Source of the DNA: a virus
DNA length: 10,955 nucleotides
UHGV virus genome: UHGV-2150205
Reading direction: 5' to 3' (one strand)
Made by a program: the position numbers and the translations under genes. Shown here one piece after another: positions 823-10,393 of this stretch. How positions within the stretch are numbered: position 1 is the stretch's first letter; every line of letters starts with the position of its first letter. The notes under the pieces were generated by a model, which ran no database searches, was not told where the DNA came from, and saw only the letters and a program-made list of their open reading frames with translations.

Positions 823-898
823 AATGACTCCTGTGGATTGATCCAGTCTTTCTACATCAGGCCTCGAAGAATTCGCCGTTCTTCGGGGCTTTTTCTTT
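817..898 (+). ncRNA. oop: oop-like short antisense RNA, predicted. An extended -10 (TGtCATAAT, 817-825) would start a transcript near 832 that ends at the intrinsic terminator at 861-898, antisense to the 3' end of cII.
   Basis: The plus strand carries an 11-bp stem (861-871 pairing with 879-889, loop ttcgccg) followed by tttttctttt, opposite the last codons of cII. This is the arrangement of lambda oop and its terminator. The promoter assignment is by eye only. Confidence 0.45.
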
Positions 899-1144
899 TG
901 TCAGCATTCTGGCTACTTGCTTAGCCAGTTCCGCCAACTCCTCGTCTTCAACACCCCATTCCAGCACAGCCAGAAGCATGGCCATCTTTGGGATAAAGCT
1001 GTCTTTCCATCGCGAAATTTGCGATTCATTAATCCCTAACGCGTCGGCAACCTTTCGCTGACCACGTACAGCAATTCGATTCAGGATGTTAAGCAACGCA
1101 CTCTCGATTCGTAGAGCCTCGTTGCGTTTGTTTGCACGAACCAT
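857..1144 (-). CDS. cII: CII transcriptional activator, 95 aa ([95 protein letters not shown]).
   Basis: Strong similarity to lambda CII as recalled ([19 protein letters not shown]..., [17 protein letters not shown]). The start was moved to the internal ATG at 1144, which has an AAGGA RBS and matches the lambda cII start context; the track ORF begins 29 codons upstream in frame. Confidence 0.9.
861..898 (+). terminator. Rho-independent terminator on the plus strand, overlapping the cII 3' end in antisense (tO-like).
   Basis: gcctcgaagaa / ttcttcggggc stem with a 7-nt loop, then a T-tract at 890-898. Confidence 0.65.
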
Positions 1145-1162
1145 ATGTAAGTATTTCCTTAA
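1122..1162 (+). promoter_or_regulatory. pRE-like CII-activated promoter: TTGC-N6-TTGC (1122-1125 and 1132-1135) embedded in the 5' end of cII on the opposite strand, directed toward cI.
   Basis: The plus strand reads cgTTGCgtttgtTTGCacgaaccatatgtaagtatttcc, which matches the lambda pRE/CII-binding region as I remember it. Confidence 0.6.
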
Positions 1163-1175
1163 CAAATAAGAAGTT

Positions 1176-1196
1176 ATGCGCATCAACTTATGCGCG
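1176..1196 (-). terminator. tR1-like hairpin between nutR and cII (GCGCAT-loop-ATGCGC in cro-sense); probably a weak or Rho-dependent pause or termination site.
   Basis: A 6-bp self-complementary stem is visible, but there is no strong U-tract. The call rests on position by analogy to lambda tR1. Confidence 0.3.
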
Positions 1197-1202
1197 TTGT
1201 AT

Positions 1203-1245
1203 TCCCGCATTTCGGCGGGAATGAGGACCATGACTGTTAAAGAGC
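1203..1245 (-). promoter_or_regulatory. nutR: boxA (GCTCTTTAACA, plus-strand coordinates 1235-1245) and boxB hairpin (TCCCGC-CGAAAT-GCGGGA, 1203-1220), just downstream of the cro stop.
   Basis: boxA matches the rrn-type consensus. boxB is a 6-bp stem with a GAAA-containing loop. The identical boxA and boxB recur on the plus strand upstream of N (nutL). Confidence 0.7.
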
Positions 1246-1252
1246 GGTGTTA

Positions 1253-1447
1253 CTATTTGTTTTTCTTGTTGCTTGGGAAAGGACGAACTTCCTCTCCAAT
1301 CACACTGCCATCAGGCTTTACCGTAACCATAATGTTACGGCCTGCCAGAATGGCCTTGCTGATAGCGCACTGGATTACACCAAAGTCACTGGCTGCTTTA
1401 GCCTGTCCATGGATTTTGGCGTAATCGGCAAGTGTCATTCGAATCAT
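1253..1447 (-). CDS. cro: Cro repressor, 64 aa from the ATG at 1447 ([64 protein letters not shown]).
   Basis: Similar to lambda Cro as recalled (ITLKDYA, SAINKAI, ADGSV, EEVKPFPSNKK). GGAG lies 7 nt upstream of the ATG at 1447; the track ORF starts two codons earlier at a GTG. Confidence 0.85.
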
Positions 1448-1478
1448 ATGCACTCTCCGTTATTAACCATGAACAAAG

Positions 1479-1553: not shown

Positions 1554-2270
1554 ATGGAAAATAAAAAATCACTGACGACAGAACAGCTCGAAGACGCTAA
1601 GCGGCTTAAGGCTTTGTATGAGTCAAAAAAGAAAGAATTGGGAATAACCCAATACTCAATCGCTGATGAACTGGGTATCACCCAAGGAGCGGTAGGGCAT
1701 TATCTTAATGGCAGAAACGCGCTAAACGTTGAGGTCGCATCTGGTTTTGCACGATTGTTGCAAGTCTCAATTGCTGATTTTAGCCAGTCAATTGCTGCCA
1801 AGGTTGCAGAACAGGCAGAAAGCCTTAAGAGCGATGCCAACGTAAGGTATGCAGGGGAATACAGAGCAGGAAAGAGGTATCCGGTGTTAAGCAGTATCCA
1901 GGCTGGCTCGTGGTGTGAAGCATGCGAACCATACACCATTAAAGACATAGATGTTTGGCTTGAGTCTGACGCGCATATTCAAGGTAATGCGTTCTGGCTT
2001 AAAGTAGAAGGTGATTCAATGACGGCACCGGTTGGGTTAAGCATTCCAGAGGGAACATTCGTTCTTTTCGATACCGGAAGGGAGGCGATCAACGGCAGCT
2101 TGGTCATAGCAAAACTTTCTGACTCTAACGAAGCAACATTCAAGAAGCTGATAATCGACGGCGGAAATAAATACCTCAAGGGACTTAATCCTGCATGGCC
2201 TCTCGTGCCAATCAATGGAAACTGCAAGATTATAGGCGTTGCAATTGAGACAAAACTAAGGCTGGTTTGA
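1554..2270 (+). CDS. cI: CI-type prophage repressor, 238 aa, with an N-terminal HTH and a C-terminal S24 (LexA-like) autopeptidase domain.
   Basis: Close to lambda CI at both ends as recalled (KKxLTxEQLEDAxRLKAxYExKKxELG, NALN, FWLxVEGxSMTAP, TFKKLI). A candidate Ala-Gly cleavage site (RYAGEY) and the catalytic Ser (GDSM) and Lys (FKKL) are present. Confidence 0.95.
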   Translation: MENKKSLTTEQLEDAKRLKALYESKKKELGITQYSIADELGITQGAVGHYLNGRNALNVEVASGFARLLQVSIADFSQSIAAKVAEQAESLKSDANVRYAGEYRAGKRYPVLSSIQAGSWCEACEPYTIKDIDVWLESDAHIQGNAFWLKVEGDSMTAPVGLSIPEGTFVLFDTGREAINGSLVIAKLSDSNEATFKKLIIDGGNKYLKGLNPAWPLVPINGNCKIIGVAIETKLRLV

Positions 2271-2287
2271 TCACGCAAGGGGCGCTT

Positions 2288-2656
2288 ATGGTTGGAACCG
2301 CTATAGCAAGCTTTTTTGGGATGTTGGCAATCTCGACAATTTACGGCTTAGCGCATGCTGTTATTGCGAAATCTCTATCAGAAAAAATAAGCCAGGCTTG
2401 GGCGCATAGATCAGCTCGTTTCATGATTCTGGTGATCATAGCAATACAAGGGATATCTGCATTTATCCTCTATGGATCAAGCTTATACCTATTGTATCAA
2501 GGCGCGACATTTACGCCTTACACCAGTGATTACGGAACTCTATACGATGGTAGTGAAGACATCACTGTGGCTTGGATCGTCTTTGGTTTATCTATGGCCG
2601 TGTCTGTTGTAGCAGACATCATTAAGGTAATTCTCGTCTTAACCTTCGCTGACTAA
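2288..2656 (+). CDS. Small integral membrane protein, 122 aa with about three predicted transmembrane helices, immediately downstream of cI and probably co-transcribed with it (rex position). Function unknown.
   Basis: AAGGGG RBS 5 nt before the ATG at 2288; the track ORF starts at an upstream TTG at 2267. Hydrophobic segments are VGTAIASFFGMLAISTIYGLAHAVIA, FMILVIIAIQGISAFILYGSSLYLLY and ITVAWIVFGLSMAVSVVADIIKVILVLTF. Only 18 nt separate the cI stop from this start. Confidence 0.7.
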   Translation: MVGTAIASFFGMLAISTIYGLAHAVIAKSLSEKISQAWAHRSARFMILVIIAIQGISAFILYGSSLYLLYQGATFTPYTSDYGTLYDGSEDITVAWIVFGLSMAVSVVADIIKVILVLTFAD

Positions 2657-2787
2657 CCTATAATCCCGGCAGCAATAGCTATCGGGATCCACTTCACATA
2701 TCCCGCATAAAAAGCACTGAACAAGCAGACACCGAAAAAATAAATATCCTTTGTATTCATTTGCTTATCATTATTTCATCAAAAACA

Positions 2788-2829
2788 AATACCTTGGGTA
2801 TTTACACAATAAAATACCTACAGTATTCT
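2788..2829 (+). promoter_or_regulatory. OL operators and pL. Sites AATACCTTGGGTATT (2788-2802) and AATACCTACAGTATT (2813-2827), with -35 TTTACA (2801-2806) and -10 TATTCT (2824-2829) directed toward N.
   Basis: Same operator family as OR at the same 25-bp spacing. The -10 overlaps an operator, as expected for repressor control. Confidence 0.6.
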
Positions 2830-2874
2830 TTAGCCATCAGCAGGACGCTGGCAGCCAAACGGAACAGATTGGCA

Positions 2875-2916
2875 GGCTCTTTAACATTGATGGGATTGTC
2901 CCGCCGAAATGCGGGA
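2875..2916 (+). promoter_or_regulatory. nutL: boxA GGCTCTTTAACA (2875-2886) and boxB hairpin TCCCGC-CGAAAT-GCGGGA (2899-2916).
   Basis: boxA and boxB are identical in sequence to the nutR copy on the minus strand and lie downstream of pL and upstream of N. Confidence 0.7.
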
Positions 2917-3087
2917 ACCAAAGAGTAGTTGGCTTTGGGGTGTGGTGAAGGGTTCATGGACGGGAATATGTCGCACGTAAAGCGGCGAGGCCTGCGGGAC
3001 TATTCCCGAATTGAAGTCGGACGAAGCGGGTCGAAATGGGTCTCCCACCTACCACACCACCAAAGCTAATCATCTGAGGAACAGAAA

Positions 3088-3207
3088 ATGTTAGACATCA
3101 TGACCAACCCAATTCTCGGTGGTTTAGTTACCACATTCGCCATCTGCTTCGGTTTCACTATCTGGTCTGAAGTAGATGACTGGATGTGGGAACGCAAAAA
3201 CAAATAA
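3088..3207 (+). CDS. Leader micro-ORF, 39 aa (MLDIMTNPILGGLVTTFAICFGFTIWSEVDDWMWERKNK), a predicted single-pass hydrophobic peptide between nutL and N.
   Basis: GAGGA RBS 7-8 nt before the ATG at 3088. The hydrophobic core is ILGGLVTTFAICFGFTIW. It is below the track cutoff and coding status is unproven. Confidence 0.4.
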   Translation: MLDIMTNPILGGLVTTFAICFGFTIWSEVDDWMWERKNK

Positions 3208-3247
3208 TCATCGACACACAAGGATGTGTACCTTCCCGGAGGTCAAC

Positions 3248-3547
3248 ATGACAGTAGTCATTACATATCTGGCTGACGATAACGCCAGAAATCGCCGCAG
3301 AGCACGCAGACAGGCTCAACGTGAACAGGCAATGCAAGAGCAGCGACTGGCGCGAAAAATTGCGCTAAAGCTCTCTGGTTGCGTCAGAGCAGATAAAGCA
3401 GCATCACTCGGAAGCCTTCGCTGCAAGAAGGCAGAAGAAGTTGAGCGTAAACAGAATCGTATTTACTACCGCAAGCCACGCAGTGAAATGGGTGTGACTT
3501 GTGTTGGTCGCCAGAAAATGAAATTAGGCAGCAAACCACTTATTTGA
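3248..3547 (+). CDS. N: N-type transcription antiterminator, 99 aa, with an arginine-rich motif near the N-terminus (NARNRRRARRQAQ) and a lambda N-like C-terminus (YRKPRSEMGVTCVGRQKMKLGSKPLI).
   Basis: GGAGG RBS 6 nt before the ATG at 3248. The N-terminal MTVVITY resembles P22 gp24 and the C-terminus resembles lambda N (SKPGERGITCSGRQKIKGKSIPLI), both from memory. The track ORF (3176 start) extends upstream into the micro-ORF. Confidence 0.85.
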   Translation: MTVVITYLADDNARNRRRARRQAQREQAMQEQRLARKIALKLSGCVRADKAASLGSLRCKKAEEVERKQNRIYYRKPRSEMGVTCVGRQKMKLGSKPLI

Positions 3548-3555
3548 GGTGAGAT

Positions 3556-3807
3556 ATGGAATTTCATGAAAGTGCGATTTGTGATTTTCGCGCTAACGCA
3601 AATTCAGTAAAACCACAGCCAATTGCAGTTCTTTTTAAAACAATGGGTGCGTGGGCTGTTTTATGCTTCGCCTCTGATGACACTGACGCAAGAATGGCAA
3701 TAGGCCAAGAGATGGAGATGGACCCGACAAACGATGAATTCATAATTTATGGCGCTCCATCTAATTACTTACTTGATACCTGCAACATTTACAACAAGGC
3801 TGCCTGA
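3556..3807 (+). CDS. Hypothetical protein, 83 aa, first gene after N.
   Basis: GAGGTGAG RBS before the ATG at 3556; the frame is open and tightly packed after N. No family recognised. Confidence 0.6.
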   Translation: MEFHESAICDFRANANSVKPQPIAVLFKTMGAWAVLCFASDDTDARMAIGQEMEMDPTNDEFIIYGAPSNYLLDTCNIYNKAA

Positions 3808-3846
3808 TGGTGGCCTTTATTTTTGGCGTAAACAACAGAGGCTAAC

Positions 3847-4143
3847 ATGGAATTTAAAGGTACTGAAGGTAAGTGGGAAATAATGATGGATGGCGATGAG
3901 ATTAAAATCATCCAGGCAGACTCACTTGAAAATGGCGCAGGATGGCGTTCGTATATTGCAATCTGTGAGGAAGTTCAATGCATTGAAGATGCCAATCTAA
4001 TAGCGGCAGCACCTGACCTTCTCGAAGCACTTCAGTTATTACTTAAGCAAACCAAAAATAGAACAACGACAACATATCCAGAATGGTATGGAGCTGTTAA
4101 TAAAGGTCTCGCAGCAATAAGAAAAGCTCTTGGGGATAAGTAA
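3847..4143 (+). CDS. Hypothetical protein, 98 aa, containing the motif NLIAAAPDLLEALQ.
   Basis: AGAGG RBS before the ATG at 3847. I recall the LIAAAPDLLEAL motif recurring in enterobacterial prophage early proteins, but I cannot assign a function. Confidence 0.6.
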   Translation: MEFKGTEGKWEIMMDGDEIKIIQADSLENGAGWRSYIAICEEVQCIEDANLIAAAPDLLEALQLLLKQTKNRTTTTYPEWYGAVNKGLAAIRKALGDK

Positions 4144-4331
4144 TGAAAGTAAAAATAACTGCTTCTAATACCAGTTTTGTTAGTGTTGGTGATATTACAG
4201 AAGTAATAACAAACCATGATGGAACACAAGTTATGTGGTCTGATTTTTGTAAAAGATATGAGCGAGTCACTTGGTGTAAACTCGTATGGGGCGTCGAATA
4301 CGAAGAATTACCTGAAATGCATGACGAATAA
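4143..4331 (+). CDS. Hypothetical protein, 62 aa; its start overlaps the upstream stop (TAATG).
   Basis: Stop/start overlap with the preceding gene and AT-rich composition. No family recognised. Confidence 0.55.
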   Translation: MKVKITASNTSFVSVGDITEVITNHDGTQVMWSDFCKRYERVTWCKLVWGVEYEELPEMHDE

Positions 4332-4426
4332 GCACTGTGTATTCATTCCAACGAGTGAATACACGGAGCAATGTCGCTCGTAACTAAACAGGAGCCGACT
4401 TGTTCTGATTATTGGAAATCTTCTTT

Positions 4427-4450
4427 GCCCTCCAGTGTGAGGGCCTTTTT
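4427..4450 (+). terminator. Rho-independent terminator (GCCCTC-cagtgt-GAGGGC followed by CTTTTTAT), tL-like and presumably read through under N antitermination.
   Basis: Perfect 6-bp GC-rich stem followed by a T-tract. Confidence 0.65.
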
Positions 4451-4516
4451 ATATGCATACCAATAACGCTTCACTCGAGGCGTTTTCGTTATGCAATCAA
4501 ACAGAAGGAGCATCCT

Positions 4517-4687
4517 ATGCAACAGTTCGCTATTGCAGGGGCGGCATCGGTTCGCCCTTTCAACCCGATTTTATCGGTACAGCATTCACGAAAAAATATT
4601 TTAACCGGAGCAGACTTTAAACAACCAAGAATGAAAAGTTTGCTCGAAAAGCTTTGGGATATTTTGAAACAACAAGGCCGTCCATGA
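4517..4687 (+). CDS. cIII: CIII-like small protein, 56 aa (MQQFAIAGAASVRPFNPILSVQHSRKNILTGADFKQPRMKSLLEKLWDILKQQGRP); a possible FtsH (HflB) inhibitor.
   Basis: AAGGAG RBS 6 nt before the ATG at 4517. It resembles lambda CIII as recalled (N-terminal MQYAIAG and C-terminal SLLExxxxxLxDILxQxG). The track ORF (4412 start) is longer; the internal start was chosen on the RBS. Confidence 0.45.
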   Translation: MQQFAIAGAASVRPFNPILSVQHSRKNILTGADFKQPRMKSLLEKLWDILKQQGRP

Positions 4688-4794
4688 GTTTTACAGATAA
4701 CTGGTCAGACGAAGAATTCATTCGTCATATGAAAGAATTAATCGGTAACGAAGGAGATATTCATGTCACTTGCAACCACAGTGAAGGAGAGTAA
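4684..4794 (+). CDS. Small ORF, 36 aa (MSFTDNWSDEEFIRHMKELIGNEGDIHVTCNHSEGE), with an ATGA overlap on the cIII-like gene. It is in the position of kil, but no similarity is claimed.
   Basis: ATGA start/stop overlap and AAGG 5 nt upstream. Below the track cutoff. Confidence 0.3.
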   Translation: MSFTDNWSDEEFIRHMKELIGNEGDIHVTCNHSEGE

Positions 4795-4941
4795 GTTACA
4801 GAGACGCATGTACACGCAGAAAGCTCTCTGGTATCGCCATAATGGCGACCGCGAAGGAATGCGGGTATGCCTTAATTTGTCCCGAGTCGAAGTATTAAAT
4901 CAGCGTTATTTCCTTGGGCCGTGTCCATTCTGAGGTGAATT

Positions 4942-5649
4942 ATGGATTTGAATAAATTCGATGAGCCATTCAGCCCTGAAGATATCGAATGGCGAATACA
5001 GCAAAGCGGTAAAACACGCGATGGAAAGGTGTGGGCTATGGTGCTGGCTTATGTCACGAACAGGGCAATCATGAAACGCCTGGACGATGTTTGCGGCAAA
5101 GCAGGATGGCGCAATGAATACCGCGATATTCCCAACAACGGAGGCGTTGAATGCGGCATATCAATCAGGATTGATTCCGAATGGGTAACCAAATGGGATG
5201 CTGCTGAAAACACGCAGGTAGAAGCCGTAAAAGGTGGTCGTTCCGGTGCAATGAAGCGCGCTGCCGTTCAGTGGGGAATCGGTCGGTATCTGTATAACCT
5301 TGAGGAAGGTTTTGCACAAACATCTCTCGATAAAAAGCAGGGATGGCACAGGGCAAAACTCAAGGATGGAACAGGATTTTACTGGCTCCCTCCATCGCTG
5401 CCGGGATGGGCAATCCCAGCATCAGATAACAAACCATCACCAGAAAATACCAACCAGAAATCTCCATCGGTTGACTGCGAACAAATCCTGAAAGACTTCA
5501 GCGATTATGCGTCAACAGAAACTGACAAGAAAAAACTCATCGAGCGTTATCAGCGTGACTGGCAATTAATGGCTGGCAACGAGGAGGCGCAGGCTAAATG
5601 CGTTCAGGTAATGAACATCAGAGTTAACGAACTAAAACAGGCGGCATAA
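4942..5649 (+). CDS. Rad52-family single-strand annealing protein (Sak-like recombinase), 235 aa.
   Basis: Motifs typical of Rad52/Sak proteins (GKAGW...GGVECGISI and KGGRSGAMKRAAVQWGIGRYLY). It occupies the bet position in the pL operon and is followed immediately by ssb. Confidence 0.8.
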   Translation: MDLNKFDEPFSPEDIEWRIQQSGKTRDGKVWAMVLAYVTNRAIMKRLDDVCGKAGWRNEYRDIPNNGGVECGISIRIDSEWVTKWDAAENTQVEAVKGGRSGAMKRAAVQWGIGRYLYNLEEGFAQTSLDKKQGWHRAKLKDGTGFYWLPPSLPGWAIPASDNKPSPENTNQKSPSVDCEQILKDFSDYASTETDKKKLIERYQRDWQLMAGNEEAQAKCVQVMNIRVNELKQAA

Positions 5650-6165
5650 ATGGCAAGCAGAGGCGTAAATAAGGTGATCATTATTGGTCGCCTTGGGCAT
5701 GATCCAGAAATCAGATATTCACCATCAGGAACGGCATTTGCAAACCTTACCGTTGCTACGTCAGAACAATGGCGTGATAAGAAAACTGGAGAGCAAAAGG
5801 AGCAGACGGAGTGGCACCGCGTGGTAATGAGCGGGAAACTGGCAGAAATTGCCAGCGAATATCTGCGAAAAGGCTCTGAGGTTTATCTTGAAGGCAAATT
5901 GCGGACAAGAAAATGGCAGGATCAAAGCGGACAGGATCGGTTCACTACCGAAGTCATCGTGGGCGTTGGTGGAACCATGCAAATGCTTGGTGGCAAGCAA
6001 GGAGGCAATGAACAGTCTTCACCTCAGCGAAATAATGGTCAGCAACAAAGACAGCAACCTCAGCAGCAGGGAAATCACAGCGAACCACCTATGGATTTTG
6101 ACGACGATATCCCCTTTGCACCAGTAACTCTCCCCTTCCCTCGTCACGCTATTCACGCAATTTAA
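5650..6165 (+). CDS. ssb: Single-stranded DNA-binding protein, 171 aa. The OB-fold N-terminus is near-identical to E. coli SSB; the C-terminus reads DFDDDIPF followed by 15 extra residues ([15 protein letters not shown]).
   Basis: [23 protein letters not shown]...TEWHRVV...LRTRKW.DQSGQDR.TTEV matches E. coli SSB, with a Gln/Gly-rich linker and acidic tip. The start follows the upstream stop directly. Confidence 0.95.
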
Positions 6166-6173
6166 GGACTTAC

Positions 6174-6722
6174 ATGAATCACTTGATGGTTGACCTTGAA
6201 ACAATGGGCAACGGGCCATACGCGCCAGTTATTTCTATTGGGGCGGTATTCTTTGACCCGAATACCGGAGAAACAGGAGAAGAGTTCTCGGTAAATATCT
6301 CGCTTGAGTCATCAATGCGATATCGGGCGCGTCCTGACGCTTCAACGATTTTATGGTGGCTGGAACAGAGTGAAGAAGCCAGAAAATCGCTAACCAGCAA
6401 CACTCAGGAGCTTTCAACGGCTCTTTCATGGTTATCTGAATTCATCATAAAGAACGCTAACCACAAATTCGTTCAGGTTTGGGGGAATGGAGCATCATTT
6501 GACTGCGTTATTCTCCGAAACAGTTATTCGCTGACAGGGCAGCCAGTTCCATGGCAGTGGTGGAATGACCGCGACGTAAGAACAATCGTCGAGCTTGGAA
6601 AGGTAATAGGATTCGACCCTAAGCGAGATATGCCATTCAAAGGAACTCGCCACAACGCTCTTGATGATGCCATTCACCAAGCCAAATACGTTTCAGCGAT
6701 CTGGAAAAAGTTAGCTAAATAA
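6174..6722 (+). CDS. DEDDh-type (DnaQ-like) 3'-5' exonuclease, 182 aa.
   Basis: Exo I-like motif VDLETMG, central motif VWGNGASFD and Exo III-like motif HNALDDAIHQA. AAGGA RBS before the ATG at 6174. Confidence 0.75.
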   Translation: MNHLMVDLETMGNGPYAPVISIGAVFFDPNTGETGEEFSVNISLESSMRYRARPDASTILWWLEQSEEARKSLTSNTQELSTALSWLSEFIIKNANHKFVQVWGNGASFDCVILRNSYSLTGQPVPWQWWNDRDVRTIVELGKVIGFDPKRDMPFKGTRHNALDDAIHQAKYVSAIWKKLAK

Positions 6723-6738
6723 TCAACAGGAGAAAACC

Positions 6739-7035
6739 ATGCCAGCGCCTCTGTATGGTGCGGATGACCCGCGCCGCTGTTCCGGCAATTCCGTATCGGA
6801 GGTGCTGGATAAATTCAGAAAAAACTACGATCGGATAATGTCGCTACCGCAGGAAACGAAAGAGGAAAAGGAATTTCGCCACTGTATATGGCTTGCAGAG
6901 AAAGAAGAACGCGAGCGAATTTACCAGACATCAATCCGACCATTCCGCAAAGCCACATATACCCACTTCCCTGAATATATCGACCCGCGCCTGCGTAATT
7001 ACCGCTCACGCTATGGCACTATCAGTAATGACTGA
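6739..7035 (+). CDS. Hypothetical protein, 98 aa.
   Basis: AGGAG RBS before the ATG at 6739; open frame in the operon. Confidence 0.6.
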   Translation: MPAPLYGADDPRRCSGNSVSEVLDKFRKNYDRIMSLPQETKEEKEFRHCIWLAEKEERERIYQTSIRPFRKATYTHFPEYIDPRLRNYRSRYGTISND

Positions 7036-7955: not shown

Positions 7956-8257
7956 CGATCACAAAACAACGTGTAGAAGAAATCATATCCCGTATTGAAA
8001 TGTATGGGCATGGTGCCGGGTATACCGCTGATGAGGTTTATGACCTTGCTGTACTGGCGCTGAATTTATCAAATATCGCAAAACTCAAGCGATACGAGCT
8101 TGATATGGATGGTTGTGACTCGTTCGGTCAGGATTGTGGCGCTGACATGACTGAAGATTCTGATGGCGATTATGTCCTGTTTGATGACGTAGTTAAGTTG
8201 TTTGAGTTTGATACATTCGAAAGCCCAGCAAAGGAGGCAACCAGTGAGCAAGATTGA
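7952..8257 (+). CDS. Hypothetical acidic protein, 101 aa.
   Basis: ATGA overlap with the upstream gene and a purine-rich RBS. Confidence 0.6.
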   Translation: MTITKQRVEEIISRIEMYGHGAGYTADEVYDLAVLALNLSNIAKLKRYELDMDGCDSFGQDCGADMTEDSDGDYVLFDDVVKLFEFDTFESPAKEATSEQD

Positions 8258-9026
8258 TTATCAGGCACTGCGTGAGTTAGCAAAACAGGCAACACAAGGA
8301 GAATGGGTTGCATTTATTTCGACGGGTACTGGTACGTATGCGGTGCATACGCCCGGTGATAAACGATGTGAAGACGTTATCAAATGGACCGGCTTTGATG
8401 GACAGAAAAATGCAGAGAACAACGCTCGTTATATCGCAGCTTTCAACCCAGAAGTAGTGCAGGCGTTGCTGGACGAGCTGGAAGGCAAAGACAAACTGAT
8501 TGCCGAGCTTGGAAAACAATGCGCCGAATGGGAGCGAAAAGCATTAAGTAACTTTGAAGAGTGTGCTGCGATGGCTGAACGTATCGAAGAGATGCAGACA
8601 AAATCTGCACCAGATTCGTTTGGCATCATCGGTGAAAATATTCGAACACAGGATAATCGAATAGCATCAGACCCTATGTTTTGTGTGTATCAAAAGCGCG
8701 AAATCGTTGTTGATGCTGATTATGACTATGACCGGATTGTCTGGGTTGATGAAGATGGCAATGAAGCCAATAAACGCCAAAGTCGTCGTCTCGAACTACT
8801 TCATGAAAACTTTCGGGAGCCACCAGAAAAATGGCGGCGCGTTGCTGTGAAAGATATTGATGAATTCGTGACCTGCTGTTTCACCGAGCAGGGTTGTAAA
8901 GACTACCTGGCAGCCAATGGTCACAATCTTCGCTTGCCTTTTATATATGTAAAAAGCGGTTTCAGAAACGCTGAATATATCGGCATCAGAAACTGGCTTG
9001 CTGGCATTCGCATCAAAGGAGAGTGA
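8244..9026 (+). CDS. Ead/Ea22-like prophage protein, about 260 aa from a GTG start (MSKIDYQALRELAKQATQGEW...).
   Basis: AAGGAGG RBS 6 nt before the GTG at 8244. The N-terminal IDYQALRELAKQATQGEW and NNARYIAAFNPEVVQALLDELE resemble Ea22-like proteins as I recall them. The track ORF starts at an upstream ATG (8202) inside the previous gene. Confidence 0.6.
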   Translation: MSKIDYQALRELAKQATQGEWVAFISTGTGTYAVHTPGDKRCEDVIKWTGFDGQKNAENNARYIAAFNPEVVQALLDELEGKDKLIAELGKQCAEWERKALSNFEECAAMAERIEEMQTKSAPDSFGIIGENIRTQDNRIASDPMFCVYQKREIVVDADYDYDRIVWVDEDGNEANKRQSRRLELLHENFREPPEKWRRVAVKDIDEFVTCCFTEQGCKDYLAANGHNLRLPFIYVKSGFRNAEYIGIRNWLAGIRIKGE

Positions 9027-9027
9027 T

Positions 9028-9237
9028 ATGGCTATCGCTGCAAGTTACACCATGCATCTCTATTGTGACTGCCTCCAGTGTACAGATGGCAAATATAAGT
9101 CGCCAGACTTCGGTGAGTATATAGGTACGTCATGGGCTGGCTGTGCAAAAGAGGCGCGCAAGGATGGCTGGCGAATAAGCAAAGACAAAACACGTACTTT
9201 TGCGCCCGGGCATAAAGTTTTGAGGATTAACACATGA
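9028..9237 (+). CDS. Small Cys-rich hypothetical protein, 69 aa (MAIAASYTMHLYCDCLQCTDGKY...).
   Basis: AGGAG RBS before the ATG at 9028. Contains a CDCLQC motif and a further Cys. Confidence 0.55.
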   Translation: MAIAASYTMHLYCDCLQCTDGKYKSPDFGEYIGTSWAGCAKEARKDGWRISKDKTRTFAPGHKVLRINT

Positions 9238-10052
9238 CCACTATTACCAAAGAACGTATTGAATTGTTCATTAAAAATCCGCTTGAAAACGGGCTTGCCC
9301 GTGGCGAACAAATGGAACTGGCGCAGATTGCACTGGCCTCACTGGCAGCAGAGCCGATGGCGTGGAAATGGCGGCTTACTAGTCTTTTTGACGGTGTGCA
9401 GATTGGCCCGTGGCGGGTGTGTCTTGCGCCACTATCACCCGGCAAGGGGGATGGGTGCAAGACAGAAGCTATTCCACTTTACACCGCCCCGCCAGTACCG
9501 TTAGTACCTGCTGCATTACCTGAGAACGACGATGAGGACGGGCATGACATTGATTATCTTGAGCCATCTGAAGTTTACGCGCTTGGGCGAACATCTGGCT
9601 GGAACGCCTGCCGCGCTGCCATGCTTCATAGTGCCGAACCTGTAAGCCAAACTTACAACTTGCCACAAACGGAGTTTGAACAGGTTGCTGACCTCTACAA
9701 AATGCAATTTGATGACGGTCGCACTTGTGCCTTTCACACTGATGCGCAAAAGGCTGCTCAATGGCTTCAGACGTGCGACGGAAACAGAGTTCAGGAATAC
9801 GTGAAGCTGGAACGGTTGCAGAATGCGCTGTCTGGCAACTATCCGGTAACTCCGGATGGTTGGATAAGCTGTAGTGAGCGAATGCCAGATGATGGTCAGC
9901 ACGTAATTATTTTATGTGATGGCGCATTCGTTCTTTATGCGCAATATCGAGACGGTGAGTTTTTTGATGTTGTCCGCAATGGTGAGGAGTTCTTCGAAAC
10001 GCAGAGCCGCAATGTAACCCACTGGATGCCGCTACCAGAACCGCCGCTCTGA
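9234..10052 (+). CDS. DUF551-domain protein, 272 aa.
   Basis: The C-terminal region (DGWISCSERMPDDGQHVIIL...FVLYAQYRDGEFF...VTHWMPLPEPP) is characteristic of phage DUF551 proteins. ATGA overlap with the upstream gene. Confidence 0.7.
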   Translation: MTTITKERIELFIKNPLENGLARGEQMELAQIALASLAAEPMAWKWRLTSLFDGVQIGPWRVCLAPLSPGKGDGCKTEAIPLYTAPPVPLVPAALPENDDEDGHDIDYLEPSEVYALGRTSGWNACRAAMLHSAEPVSQTYNLPQTEFEQVADLYKMQFDDGRTCAFHTDAQKAAQWLQTCDGNRVQEYVKLERLQNALSGNYPVTPDGWISCSERMPDDGQHVIILCDGAFVLYAQYRDGEFFDVVRNGEEFFETQSRNVTHWMPLPEPPL

Positions 10053-10073
10053 TAGCGAATCTTATACATATCT

Positions 10074-10101
10074 TTTACATCAACAATATATTGTTAATTT
10101 C
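10074..10101 (+). promoter_or_regulatory. Putative internal promoter (-35 TTTACA 10074-10079, -10 TAATTT 10096-10101) with a perfect 14-bp palindrome AACAATATATTGTT (10082-10095) in the spacer.
   Basis: The palindrome is directly visible; the hexamers were assigned by eye. It sits in an AT-rich 96-nt intergenic gap upstream of the zinc-ribbon gene. Confidence 0.35.
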
Positions 10102-10148
10102 CAATCAATGTTACGTTGTCATCTCACTCATGCTTTGGAGGTAGTGAT

Positions 10149-10328
10149 ATGTCTTGTCCAAAATGCGGTTCTGGAAATATTGCAAAAGAAAAAACAAGGC
10201 GTGGATGGTCTGGAGATTATGTGTGCAGTGATTGCGGATACAACAACTCTAAAGACGCATTTGGAATGCGCGGTAAAAACGAGTTTAGTAAAAATAATAA
10301 AGAACGCGGAAGCAACGAAAAAAGCTAA
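10149..10328 (+). CDS. Small zinc-ribbon protein, 59 aa (MSCPKCGSGNIAKEKTRRGWSGDYVCSDCGYNN...), with two CxxC pairs and a Lys/Asn-rich tail.
   Basis: GGAGG RBS 7 nt before the ATG at 10149. The gene is AT-rich and bracketed by a promoter-like element and a strong terminator. Confidence 0.6.
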   Translation: MSCPKCGSGNIAKEKTRRGWSGDYVCSDCGYNNSKDAFGMRGKNEFSKNNKERGSNEKS

Positions 10329-10393
10329 ATTATTTATTCATATATGAAAACAATGTAACCAATATTCGAATTGAAGAACTGAAAGAACACTAA

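Follow-up and report, generated by a model that had tools for sequence, protein, structure and literature searches.

Three small AT-rich genes in the ral slot of a lambdoid early-left operon as candidate exchangeable accessory cargo

On balance, we favour the view that the three small genes g1, g2 and g3, at positions 3,556 to 4,331 of the window (the whole 10,955-nucleotide stretch of virus genome UHGV-2150205 that was analysed), are distinct accessory genes, spread by horizontal exchange, that lie in the hypervariable "ral slot" of the lambdoid early-left (PL) operon and encode small binders that would act early in infection. Considering that their products are small, acidic and devoid of catalytic motifs, these proteins are most likely stoichiometric binders, which would attach to host or rival-phage proteins at that early stage; that they are non-enzymatic binding proteins is our best guess from the absence of enzyme features. 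A conflict-related role, such as anti-defence or anti-exclusion, is the single most likely category of function, if still a tentative one. The locus is in other respects ordinary lambdoid mosaic cargo, since its genes are known from sequenced phages and their families have been catalogued. The features of the window on which the argument turns are as follows.

3176..3547, + strand: N-like antiterminator (phrog_271, E 6e-38; weak Pfam N_peptide match), left border of the variable slot
3556..3807, + strand: g1, 83 aa, acidic (pI 4.2, charge -7), phrog_2471
3791..3839, + strand: junction block A, 92% identity to lambda 34,055-34,103 (end of ral), with a hairpin inside
3847..4143, + strand: g2, 98 aa, putative XkdD/Y8K6 family (PF27050) member and P22 Orf78 homologue, phrog_1273
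4036..4110, + strand: hypervariable tip of the predicted g2 helical hairpin (residues 64-88)
4143..4331, + strand: g3, 62 aa, acidic small domain in a swappable slot directly 3' of g2, phrog_10407
4332..4454, + strand: junction block B, 97.6% identity to lambda 33,923-34,045 (between ral and ea10)
4465..4494, + strand: terminator-like hairpin with a T-rich tail, ahead of cIII
4517..4687, + strand: cIII-like gene, 56 aa, MQQFAIAG...LLEKLWDILKQQGRP, right border of the slot
4684-4794: Arf-like ORF
4763-4933: kil-like gene
6739-7035: Abc2 (PF11043, E 1.6e-61)
8202-9026: Ea22-like protein

The initial annotation described three tightly packed genes of 83, 98 and 62 codons, and they were recovered at exactly these coordinates on the + strand: the g1 start codon lies 8 nt past N, g2 and g3 overlap by 1 nt (TAATG), and Shine-Dalgarno-like sequences precede both g1 (GAGGTGAG) and g2 (AGAGG). 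All three are genuine coding genes under purifying selection, with dN/dS values of 0.12 for g1 (against a Salmonella phage homologue), 0.13 for g2 (0.55 when compared with a mosaic allele) and 0.24-0.27 for g3, synonymous divergence being saturated in these comparisons. Each matches a PHROG profile over its full length (phrog_2471 at E 2.9e-61, phrog_1273 at E 5.2e-32 and phrog_10407 at E 1.5e-45, respectively) and all three profiles are labelled "unknown function". The trio is also the most AT-rich part of the window, and the earlier impression that it is poorer in GC than N and the recombination genes was correct: GC is 0.42, 0.40 and 0.35 for g1, g2 and g3, against 0.48 for both N and erf and 0.455 for the whole window, and the overall value of 0.398 falls within the lowest 1% of all 776-nt windows, every equally low one of which overlaps the trio. 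The predicted products are acidic (pI 4.2-4.8) and soluble-looking. Such short, low-GC frames with no functional annotation might be taken for chance ORFs or the decaying remnants of AT-rich spacer DNA. This is hardly credible, however, given dN/dS of 0.12-0.27 at saturated synonymous divergence, full-length homologues (50-84% identity) that extend to other genera and to phages of unrelated type, a confidently predicted fold for g2 and a g2 family of 8,734 clusters, and we regard this explanation as effectively refuted already.

With respect to position, the gene orders of P22 (24(N)-sieB-ral-orf78-orf87-17-terminator-c3) and lambda (N-sieB-orf28-ral-ea10-cIII) bear out the assignment of the slot to the ral region, as do the DNA blocks beside g1 and beside g2-g3, which are 92-98% identical to the end of lambda ral and to the sequence just downstream of it. 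Because its flanks are so lambda-like, the trio can be placed in the ral accessory region and has the look of cargo that was swapped in, in agreement with the suggestion that it had been acquired horizontally. Relatives with the same flanks (N7, CUS-3 and ECP1) carry ral here, and the ral region is a top-ranked "accessory region" for diversity in the work of Silas et al. Block A contains a terminator-like hairpin (3796-3817, with a T-run to 3827; dG -13.9 kcal/mol) that overlaps the g1 stop codon, and the equivalent site in phage mEp234 is annotated as a rho-independent terminator. Block B contains a 14-bp hairpin (4334-4368; dG -21.9, z -7.7), which also lies 3' of many different genes and in lambda itself, and, as a second element, a terminator-like hairpin (4427-4444) with a T-run, at the site 4427-4453. 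A search for structured RNAs gave no Rfam match within 2600-5000. From these alignments, g2 and g3 are an insertion between two lambda-conserved junction blocks. The N-like gene at the left border has its likely true start at 3248, directly ahead of the Arg-rich motif; the cIII-like gene at the right border matches regions annotated as CIII in HK106, mEp234 and others, and has 79% DNA identity to the lambda cIII region. Each member of the trio is found without the other two in sequenced phages, and the three are independent mosaic cassettes and not one functional unit.

The product of g1 corresponds to Sap20 of VT2-Sakai, to mEp234_034 and to "orf60" of Silas et al., and the gene was already known from O157 Stx2 phages, mEp234 and HK106. 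It has only 16 homologues, all in Enterobacteriaceae, and is present in 403 of 5426 complete E. coli genomes. Like lambda Ral, it sits directly after N, and its last four residues (NKAA), stop codon and hairpin are homologous to those of ral, but beyond these C-terminal four residues it has no sequence similarity to the Ral of either lambda or P22. Since g1 carries the last four codons of ral together with the terminator-like hairpin, it lies ahead of the first terminator; it replaces ral, fused to the ral 3' junction and terminator, and is therefore predicted to be co-transcribed with N. Its expression would probably begin as soon as infection or induction sets in, while g2 and g3, 3' of the first terminator-like hairpin, should require N antitermination. 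The initial placement of the entire trio between N and a tL-like terminator accordingly holds for g1 but not for g2 and g3, which lie past the hairpin at 3796-3827.

None of the three genes had been recognised at first, but g2 proves to be a homologue of P22 Orf78 and, by annotation, a member of the XkdD/Y8K6 family. The evidence for the family assignment is strong, if indirect, and comes through close homologues: PF27050 is precomputed on nearly all of the 120 listed g2 homologues (60-100% identity), and the PGAP name XkdD/Y8K6 is attached to proteins that match g2 at 96 of 98 residues or, in DNA, at 99.7% identity. In keeping with the XkdD/Y8K6 architecture, g2 is a stand-alone protein of about 100 aa with all three motifs (N-terminal FKGTxGxW, central NAxLIAAAPxLLEAL and C-terminal AxxAIxKALG) that are near-invariant in 122 diverse members; the tie to XkdD of Bacillus subtilis PBSX is by family name alone. 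The motif that had been singled out as conserved-looking, LIAAAPDLLEAL (g2 residues 51-62, nt 3997-4032), is indeed a near-invariant signature in the alignment columns of a very large family, whose profile gathers 8,734 clusters at 50% identity, mostly of 90-110 aa, from many bacterial phyla including Proteobacteria, Planctomycetes, Bacteroidota and Chloroflexi. P22 Orf78 (NP_059602.1), annotated as a hypothetical protein, matches the family profile at E 3.7e-12 and has the AAPELLEAL and C-terminal ARAA motifs in common with g2; its gene, between ral and orf87, likewise lies between the N-analogue and c3. It differs from g2 in its length of 78 aa and in having another beta-module and tip, the identity (~39%) extending over the C-terminal half only. 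The g2 gene was already known from phage mEp043 and occurs in about 160 E. coli genomes, and its beta-module is also seen in ~145-kb virulent phages of Klebsiella, Cronobacter and Salmonella. Among ten long ORFs of the family, one (a fusion in L179) has a DUF551 domain and nine have no Pfam domain. Our literature search found nothing relevant on PF27050, XkdD/Y8K6, the PHROG families of the trio or P22 orf78. The AF2 model of g2 (pLDDT 94.1) consists of a beta-meander (residues 10-43) and an alpha-hairpin (46-70, 77-94), and neither the model nor the family alignment contains conserved polar residues of a catalytic type. Fold searches with g2 returned generic helical hairpins or uncharacterised family members only, and no solved structural relative.

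The genomic surroundings of the family could suggest that g2, g3 or both assist the phage recombination module, whether as Arf/Abc-like helpers or as modulators of host nucleases. In 63 diverse viral contigs the g2-family genes are placed between CI-like repressors and RecT/Erf/Sak4/Gam/SSB/integrase genes; RecT, Erf, Sak4, Gam, a RecE-like exonuclease or SSB is encoded within 3 kb 3' of them at diverse loci, and in our window a Rad52/Erf-like protein, SSB, exonuclease and Abc2 are all encoded 3' of the trio. Nevertheless, early operons of temperate phages are generally arranged in this way, and the g2 family accompanies recombinases of every type, is also found where there is none, and is present in virulent phages. 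Moreover, terminators and the cIII and kil genes intervene between the trio and the recombination genes, and an Arf-like ORF is already present at 4684-4794. We consider such a role very improbable. The abc- and kil-type functions that had initially been proposed as alternatives for the slot no longer apply to it, the window having its own Abc2 and kil-like gene downstream.

Our preferred reading, that of exchanged cargo, is most clearly illustrated by the internal mosaicism of g2. Among 34 enterobacterial homologues, the tip of the helical hairpin falls into 20 sequence clusters, against only 2 types of beta-module, and in 131 homologue pairs beta-modules that are at least 85% identical are combined with tips that are at most 30% identical. 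Abrupt breaks in DNA identity mark the start of g2, its central motif, its stop codon and block B, and the segment 3997..4032 that encodes LIAAAPDLLEAL is both the conserved core motif and, as a DNA identity breakpoint, an intragenic recombination joint. These comparisons show that the N-terminal, central and C-terminal hydrophobic motifs are kept while the beta-module, and above all the hairpin tip, is swapped by recombination. Mutagenesis of the tip by a diversity-generating retroelement-type mechanism is unlikely, as the alleles differ in length and the recombination breakpoints are sharp. The variable finger would then be the specificity determinant of the protein, although hypervariability at the surface may instead reflect weak constraint plus recombination and not selection for specificity towards a target.

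A second protein of the window bears on g2. In hhalign comparisons the Ea22-like protein aligned with g2 through its N-domain at 92% probability (E 5.7e-7), and none of the 20 other window proteins exceeded 1.5%; the alignment runs from GTxGxW through NAxxIAAxxP...AL and points to remote homology, at the domain level, of g2 with the N-domain found in Ea22 proteins of Stx type. The two differ in that the helix of Ea22 runs on into a long coiled coil followed by variable C-terminal domains, whereas that of g2 folds back into a hairpin; both kinds of protein are early, non-essential and mosaic. The Ea22 proteins of lambda and Stx phages are pro-lysogenic (PMC10834534, PMC7093339), raising the idea that g2, perhaps with its neighbours, tunes lysogenisation or induction via a host factor, as Ea22 and the exo-xis genes do. 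Besides the homology itself and the lysogeny-favouring effect of Ea22, this idea draws on the location of the g2 family beside the immunity region in diverse temperate phages and on a repeated association with DUF551 (the adjacency of P22 orf78 and orf87, the L179 fusion and the Ea22 V2 variant; PMC10834534). On the other hand, lambda Ea22 lacks a 63-aa segment found in the Stx variants (PMC10834534), which probably corresponds to the g2-like domain, so that the lysogeny phenotype is independent of this segment. Furthermore, the g2 beta-module is found in virulent phages, and the Pfam Ead_Ea22 model (PF13935) does not match g2 and yields a single match (E 0.031) among the 122 family members. 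An Ea22-like modulation of the lysis/lysogeny decision thus seems rather improbable, while being the next most likely role for g2 after the conflict-related ones. A more sweeping proposal, also unlikely but somewhat less so, would make the XkdD/Orf78 family a universal phage scaffold, whose hypervariable alpha-hairpin "finger", shuffled by recombination, reads polymorphic targets in phage-host or phage-phage conflict as a cassette-switching specificity protein would, with conserved motifs doubling as protein core and DNA joints and the Ea22 N-domain being the same module mounted on other effector domains.

The third gene, g3, is one among numerous small genes, unrelated to each other, that can fill the slot after g2; in other phages this slot is occupied by a 52-aa family, a 67-aa family, a TraR/DksA zinc finger or many singletons. 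It has 21 homologues, is present in 94 of 5426 E. coli genomes, and also matches the C-terminus of phrog_16117. Its relatives extend to RB49-like and 9NA-like virulent phages and to Aeromonas phages: RB49p076 and its T4-like Krischvirus homologues, as well as SP069_00240 (9NA-like), have a g3 domain that is 54-59% identical and keeps the conserved pattern ITxSNxxFVxVG...WS...YE..SW...WGVEYEEL. In RB49p076 (119 aa), unlike g3, the domain makes up the C-terminal half, and SP069_00240 stands by itself among tail genes, on the opposite strand; RB49p076, its homologues and SP069_00240 are all uncharacterised. That g2 and g3 form an obligate pair or a toxin-antitoxin-like couple can be dismissed, since at least five unrelated families plus singletons follow g2 and near-identical g2 alleles precede different genes. 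Two other candidate links were discarded: the 150-aa gene of phage Gally is not a g3 fusion and encodes an unrelated membrane protein, and the N-terminus of RB49p076 gave no HMM match that would make it an XkdD domain (a Rosetta-stone link). The occurrence of g3 and the g2 beta-module in virulent phages argues for a role during infection and not one confined to lysogeny.

Such a role could be a dedicated one in anti-defence or host takeover (by anti-restriction, modulation of RecBCD or escape from exclusion), comparable to that of ral, gene 17 and abc, which is what was originally proposed for the trio. The trio occupies the exact slot of lambda/P22 ral and gene 17, relatives with the same flanks have ral there, and the ral accessory regions stand high in the diversity ranking; g1 is predicted to be immediately expressed, as are the known early anti-restriction genes, all products have an acidic pI, and virulent phages share g3 and the g2 beta-module. 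Neither sequence nor fold lent this identification support, however, as g1, g2 and g3 gave no match to any known anti-defence, defence or enzyme family, or to any family with a solved structure. In BLASTP against the lambda and P22 proteins nothing fell below E 0.8 except g2 with orf78. The Pfam models, including Anti-RecBCD_p2 and Lar, gave no match, the trio being unlike Ral, Abc1, Abc2, Gam and gp17; nor was there any similarity to the SieB of lambda or P22, any PADLOC match at E<=1, or any likeness in sequence or fold to the solved anti-defence representatives (Ocr, ArdA, Acr, Tad, Gad, Acb and others). The supplements of two other anti-defence papers contained no match to the trio. In addition, the g2 family spans phyla with very different defence repertoires.

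The screen of 200 phage accessory genes in wild E. coli by Silas et al. is also pertinent, as their library includes orf60, the g1 orthologue (82/83 identical), and two members of the g2 family, orf110 and orf123 (HMM E 2.7e-28 and 6.3e-16); g3 is not among the 200 genes. None of the three appears in their list of "all AGs that produced phenotypes" (counter-defence, conditional-lethal), whereas Ral scored in the same screen. An absence of phenotype in such screens had been named beforehand as evidence against an anti-defence role, and the list of scoring genes accords with it in part, for the g1 orthologue and these two g2-family members within the limited phages and hosts of this screen; because of that limited scope, the anti-defence interpretation is weakened only. 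It now stands on position only, and we view it as possible but doubtful.

If the trio does consist of exchangeable early accessory genes, as we favour, its members are of interest for somewhat different reasons. The gene g1 adjoins N in many Shiga-toxin phages and, being there and probably expressed very early, any effect that it may have on induction or host range would matter to the biology of Shiga-toxin-producing E. coli. The g2 family is one of the most widespread families of small phage proteins, with a confident fold and a conserved place in the early operon, and the ties of g2 to P22 orf78 and to the Ea22 N-domain open the way to tractable genetics in P22, mEp043 and the Stx phages.

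With respect to gene content, the window corresponds to a lambda/P22-type prophage early region. The three small genes considered here, g1, g2 and g3, lie behind the antiterminator N, in the frequently exchanged position we call the ral slot.

Features of the window (coordinates, strand, description)
857-1231, minus strand, cII-like gene
1253-1453, minus strand, cro
1554-2270, plus strand, LexA-type cI repressor
2267-2656, plus strand, membrane ORF of 129 aa with 3-4 predicted membrane helices (phrog_6534, unknown function)
3176/3248-3547, plus strand, N-like antiterminator
3556-3807, plus strand, g1 (83 aa)
3847-4143, plus strand, g2 (98 aa)
4143-4331, plus strand, g3 (62 aa)
Between g3 and the cIII-like gene, hairpins and terminator-like sites
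4517-4687, plus strand, cIII-like gene
4684-4794, plus strand, Arf-like ORF of 36 aa, MSFTDNWSDEEFIRH... (phrog_2123 'recombinase', E 2e-27)
4763-4933, plus strand, kil-like gene
4942-5649, plus strand, Rad52/Erf-type annealing protein
5650-6165, plus strand, SSB
6174-6722, plus strand, Rv2179c-like 3'-5' exonuclease (PF16473, E 2.9e-73)
6739-7035, plus strand, Abc2, P22-type anti-RecBCD protein (PF11043, E 1.6e-61)
Downstream of Abc2, 'ea'-type region, including the Ead/Ea22-like and DUF551 proteins
8202-9026, plus strand, Ead/Ea22-like protein (PF13935, E 3.8e-26)
9234-10052, plus strand, DUF551 protein of 272 aa, with DUF551 at its end
10116-10328, plus strand, zinc-ribbon protein of 70 aa

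The host-takeover gene known for this operon, abc2, sits elsewhere in the window, outside the trio. It has 89% DNA identity to P22 abc2, but the gene ahead of it here encodes the Rv2179c-like exonuclease and not Abc1. The membrane ORF has a 4-nt overlap with the cI stop codon and, since it occupies the rexA/rexB position of lambda, it is a candidate for a prophage-expressed exclusion or defence gene. The 36-aa ORF and the cIII stop codon overlap. Its product has a weak match to the Erf cofactor Arf (phrog_2445, E 0.029) and SDEEFI in common with P22 Arf; it is probably an Arf analogue serving the downstream Rad52/Erf-like protein. The zinc-ribbon gene is in the stretch of the window that ranks second in AT content (10051-10350, GC 0.34), and one of the sub-threshold matches of its product is to Lar restriction alleviation (PF14354, E 5.9e-4, short of the cutoff). 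For an anti-restriction function this protein may be a stronger candidate than the three genes of the trio.

The initial annotation placed the three ORFs exactly where we find them, with 8 nt between N and the g1 start, 39 nt between g1 and g2, and a 1-nt overlap of g3 with the g2 stop codon. Its description of them as AT-rich also holds. GC content is 0.42 in g1, 0.40 in g2 and 0.35 in g3, compared with 0.455 in the window as a whole. No other 776-nt stretch is richer in AT than the trio, which ranks in the lowest 1% for GC, and all 776-nt windows as low in GC overlap it. The dN/dS ratios are 0.12 for g1, 0.24-0.27 for g3 and 0.13 for g2, the last rising to 0.55 against a mosaic allele. All three genes are under purifying selection, and a non-gene reading of these ORFs is effectively excluded. 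The trio had been placed between N and a single terminator; it does lie behind N, but a first terminator-like hairpin is already found at the end of g1. This 9-bp hairpin with a T-run (3796-3827, dG -13.9) overlaps the g1 stop codon, and the equivalent site in mEp234 is annotated as a rho-independent terminator. Consequently, g1 precedes the first terminator while g2 and g3 follow it. Gene g1 would be expressed immediately, together with N, and expression of g2 and g3 would depend on N.

Two stretches of lambda homology delimit the slot. Block A (3791-3839) matches lambda 34,055-34,103 at 92% identity and comprises the last ral codons and the ral hairpin, NKAA being the C-terminal end common to g1 and lambda Ral. 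Block B (4332-4454) matches lambda 33,923-34,045, the sequence immediately behind ral, at 97.6% identity. These two junctions are only ~10 nt apart in lambda, whereas in the window g2 and g3 lie between them. We judge this alignment decisive in indicating that g1 replaces ral and that g2-g3 were inserted between two conserved junctions. The layout is the same in P22 (24-sieB-ral-orf78-orf87-17-terminator-c3). Block B also contains a perfect 14-bp hairpin that lacks a T-run (4334-4368, plus strand; dG -21.9 kcal/mol, z -7.7). The identical hairpin closely follows ral in lambda (about 34,012-34,041) and, in other phages, a wide variety of genes. Its possible roles are those of a mosaic junction, an RNA processing/stability element or a component of the lambda tL2 cluster. 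Sliding DNA identity against four relatives breaks sharply at the g2 start, at its central motif, at the g2 stop and at block B.

None of the sequenced phages in the collection searched carries the whole trio, and each gene is found travelling alone: g1 right after N in VT2-Sakai, many other Stx phages, HK106, mEp234 and Gally, and g2 in mEp043 and APC_JM3.2. At >60% identity, g3 is absent from deposited phages and occurs only in prophages. Among 5,426 complete E. coli genomes, g1 is present in 403, g2 in 160 and g3 in 94. The trio, initially regarded as one block, is more modular than that: these are three real accessory genes, exchanged independently in the ral slot.

Both g1 and g3 belong to narrow families. 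That of g1 has 16 database clusters, all from Enterobacteriaceae, and among deposited phages it is confined to lambdoid and P22-like ones. The protein is acidic (pI 4.2), has no match in Pfam, NCBIfam, PADLOC or PDB, and has no similarity to Ral beyond the terminal NKAA. The g3 family has 21 clusters, and yet its domain is shared, with 54-59% identity, by three unrelated contexts: RB49p076 of T4-like Krischvirus phages, whose C-terminal half it forms; 9NA-like SP069, where it is a single gene on the opposite strand among the tail genes; and an Aeromonas phage. In prophages g3 always follows a g2-family gene, even where the g2 homolog is only 32% identical. Nevertheless, g3 is not an obligate partner of g2, for no fewer than four further unrelated families, and numerous singletons, are found in the same slot after g2.

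The middle gene is a member of a very large family. Searches with g2 gave no match in NCBIfam, PADLOC or a Pfam set lacking PF27050, but PF27050 is precomputed on nearly all of its close homologs, and PGAP names a 96/98-identical one 'XkdD/Y8K6 family phage-associated protein'. The conserved-looking central motif noted initially, LIAAAPDLLEAL, is real and is the signature of this family. P22 orf78 matches the family profile (E 3.7e-12), and a profile search of 1.84 billion representatives gave 8,734 clusters at E<=1e-3, nearly all stand-alone proteins of 90-110 aa. Scanning species genomes for the motif with a degenerate DNA pattern gave at least 120 loci; 115 of the 120 listed encode a full family member, their hosts including Enterobacterales, Rhizobiales, Burkholderiales, Planctomycetota, Bacteroidota, Acidobacteriota, Chloroflexota, Verrucomicrobiota and Saccharibacteria. 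The beta-module of g2 also occurs, at ~50% identity, in ~145-kb virulent phages of Klebsiella, Cronobacter, Salmonella and Proteus. Two family paralogs are present in six IMG/VR loci (L031, L053, L065, L073, L083, L087) and seven genome loci (L094, L107, L125, L137, L194, L202, L206), some in tandem (e.g. L065:4992-5318 and 5320-5646), a pattern that fits diversification through duplication and the exchange of cassettes. Across 63 diverse viral contigs, the g2-family gene lies downstream of CI-like repressors, with RecT/Erf/Sak4, Gam, RecE-like exonuclease, SSB and integrase downstream of it; this place in the early operon is conserved. A recombination-helper role, in keeping with such neighbors, seems to us very improbable.

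Conservation in the g2 family is confined to three short motifs of mostly hydrophobic or small residues (F3 G5 T6 G8 W10; A49 L51 I52 A54 A55 P56 L58 L59 A61 L62; and, C-terminally, A90 I91 K93 A94 L95). AlphaFold2 with a deep alignment (pLDDT 94.1, pTM 0.81) gives a five-strand beta-meander at residues 10-43 and, after it, a helical hairpin formed by residues 46-70 and 77-94. Foldseek against the PDB gave no match at E<=1e-3, sequence searches of the PDB gave none, and a viral structure library yielded only uncharacterised family members; by these fold and sequence searches g2 has no solved structural relative. We infer that the conserved residues form a structural core with free surfaces and not an active site. 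The tip of the hairpin is hypervariable: 34 enterobacterial homologs have 2 beta-module types against 20 unrelated tip types of differing length (residues 64-88), and in 131 homolog pairs the beta-modules are >=85% identical and the tips <=30% identical. These data establish the family membership, fold and intragenic mosaicism of g2. Its variable finger would set target specificity.

A relative of g2 is found within the window itself. Profile-profile comparison with the N-domain of the Ea22-like protein gave 66% probability with a single sequence and 92% (E 5.7e-7, 57 columns) with a small alignment, against <=1.5% for each of 20 other window proteins; by HMM, g2 is not a member of PF13935. 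At the level of sequence profiles, this demonstrates homology between the two. The N-domain (about residues 28-94) is a remote paralog of g2, so this phage has two copies of the domain, one as a protein of its own and the other joined to a coiled coil and an unknown C-terminal domain. Ea22 has a pro-lysogeny effect by a mechanism that is not understood, and an Ea22-like developmental tuning by g2 is conceivable, though we think it rather unlikely. A 63-aa segment of Stx-type Ea22 proteins that is missing from lambda Ea22 (PMC10834534) appears to be a g2-like domain. Moreover, DUF551 accompanies the g2/Ea22 N-domain in three cases: in P22, orf87, which is DUF551-like by eye, comes after orf78; one genome locus (L179:5966-6520) encodes a fusion of the two; and the Ea22 V2 variant carries DUF551 (PMC10834534). 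This repeated pairing may reflect a functional link.

The initial annotation proposed anti-defence or host-takeover functions. Location and the general behavior of such regions favor this, but a published screen weakens it. Silas et al. used wild E. coli strains to express 200 accessory genes of phages, which they scored for conditional lethality and for sensitisation to phages T2-T7, P1 and lambda (bioRxiv 10.1101/2023.04.06.535777). Their library (UDP number = orf number) includes UDP0060, which is mEp234 AFM76313.1 and 82/83 identical to g1; UDP0110 and UDP0123, of the g2 family (HMM E 2.7e-28 and 6.3e-16; 35-42% identity to g2); and UDP0149, a 52-aa gene in place of g3 in APC_JM3.2. None of these four is mentioned in the text or is among 'all AGs that produced phenotypes' (orf7, 24, 48, 63, 92, 98, 116, 126, 143, 145, 148, 184), and ral was a hit in the same experiments (bioRxiv 10.1101/2023.04.06.535777). 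This is real but limited negative evidence: genes were expressed singly, with heterologous phages and about twenty hosts, the g2-family members were alleles other than g2, and g3 was outside the screen. That at least one of the trio is conflict-related is a possibility to which we give roughly one chance in three. All three products are probably non-enzymatic binding proteins that act early in infection. The locus is ordinary lambdoid mosaic cargo of already-catalogued genes whose functions are unassigned; of its parts only g2 merits follow-up, on account of a fold without a solved relative, the size of the g2 family and the hypervariable finger.
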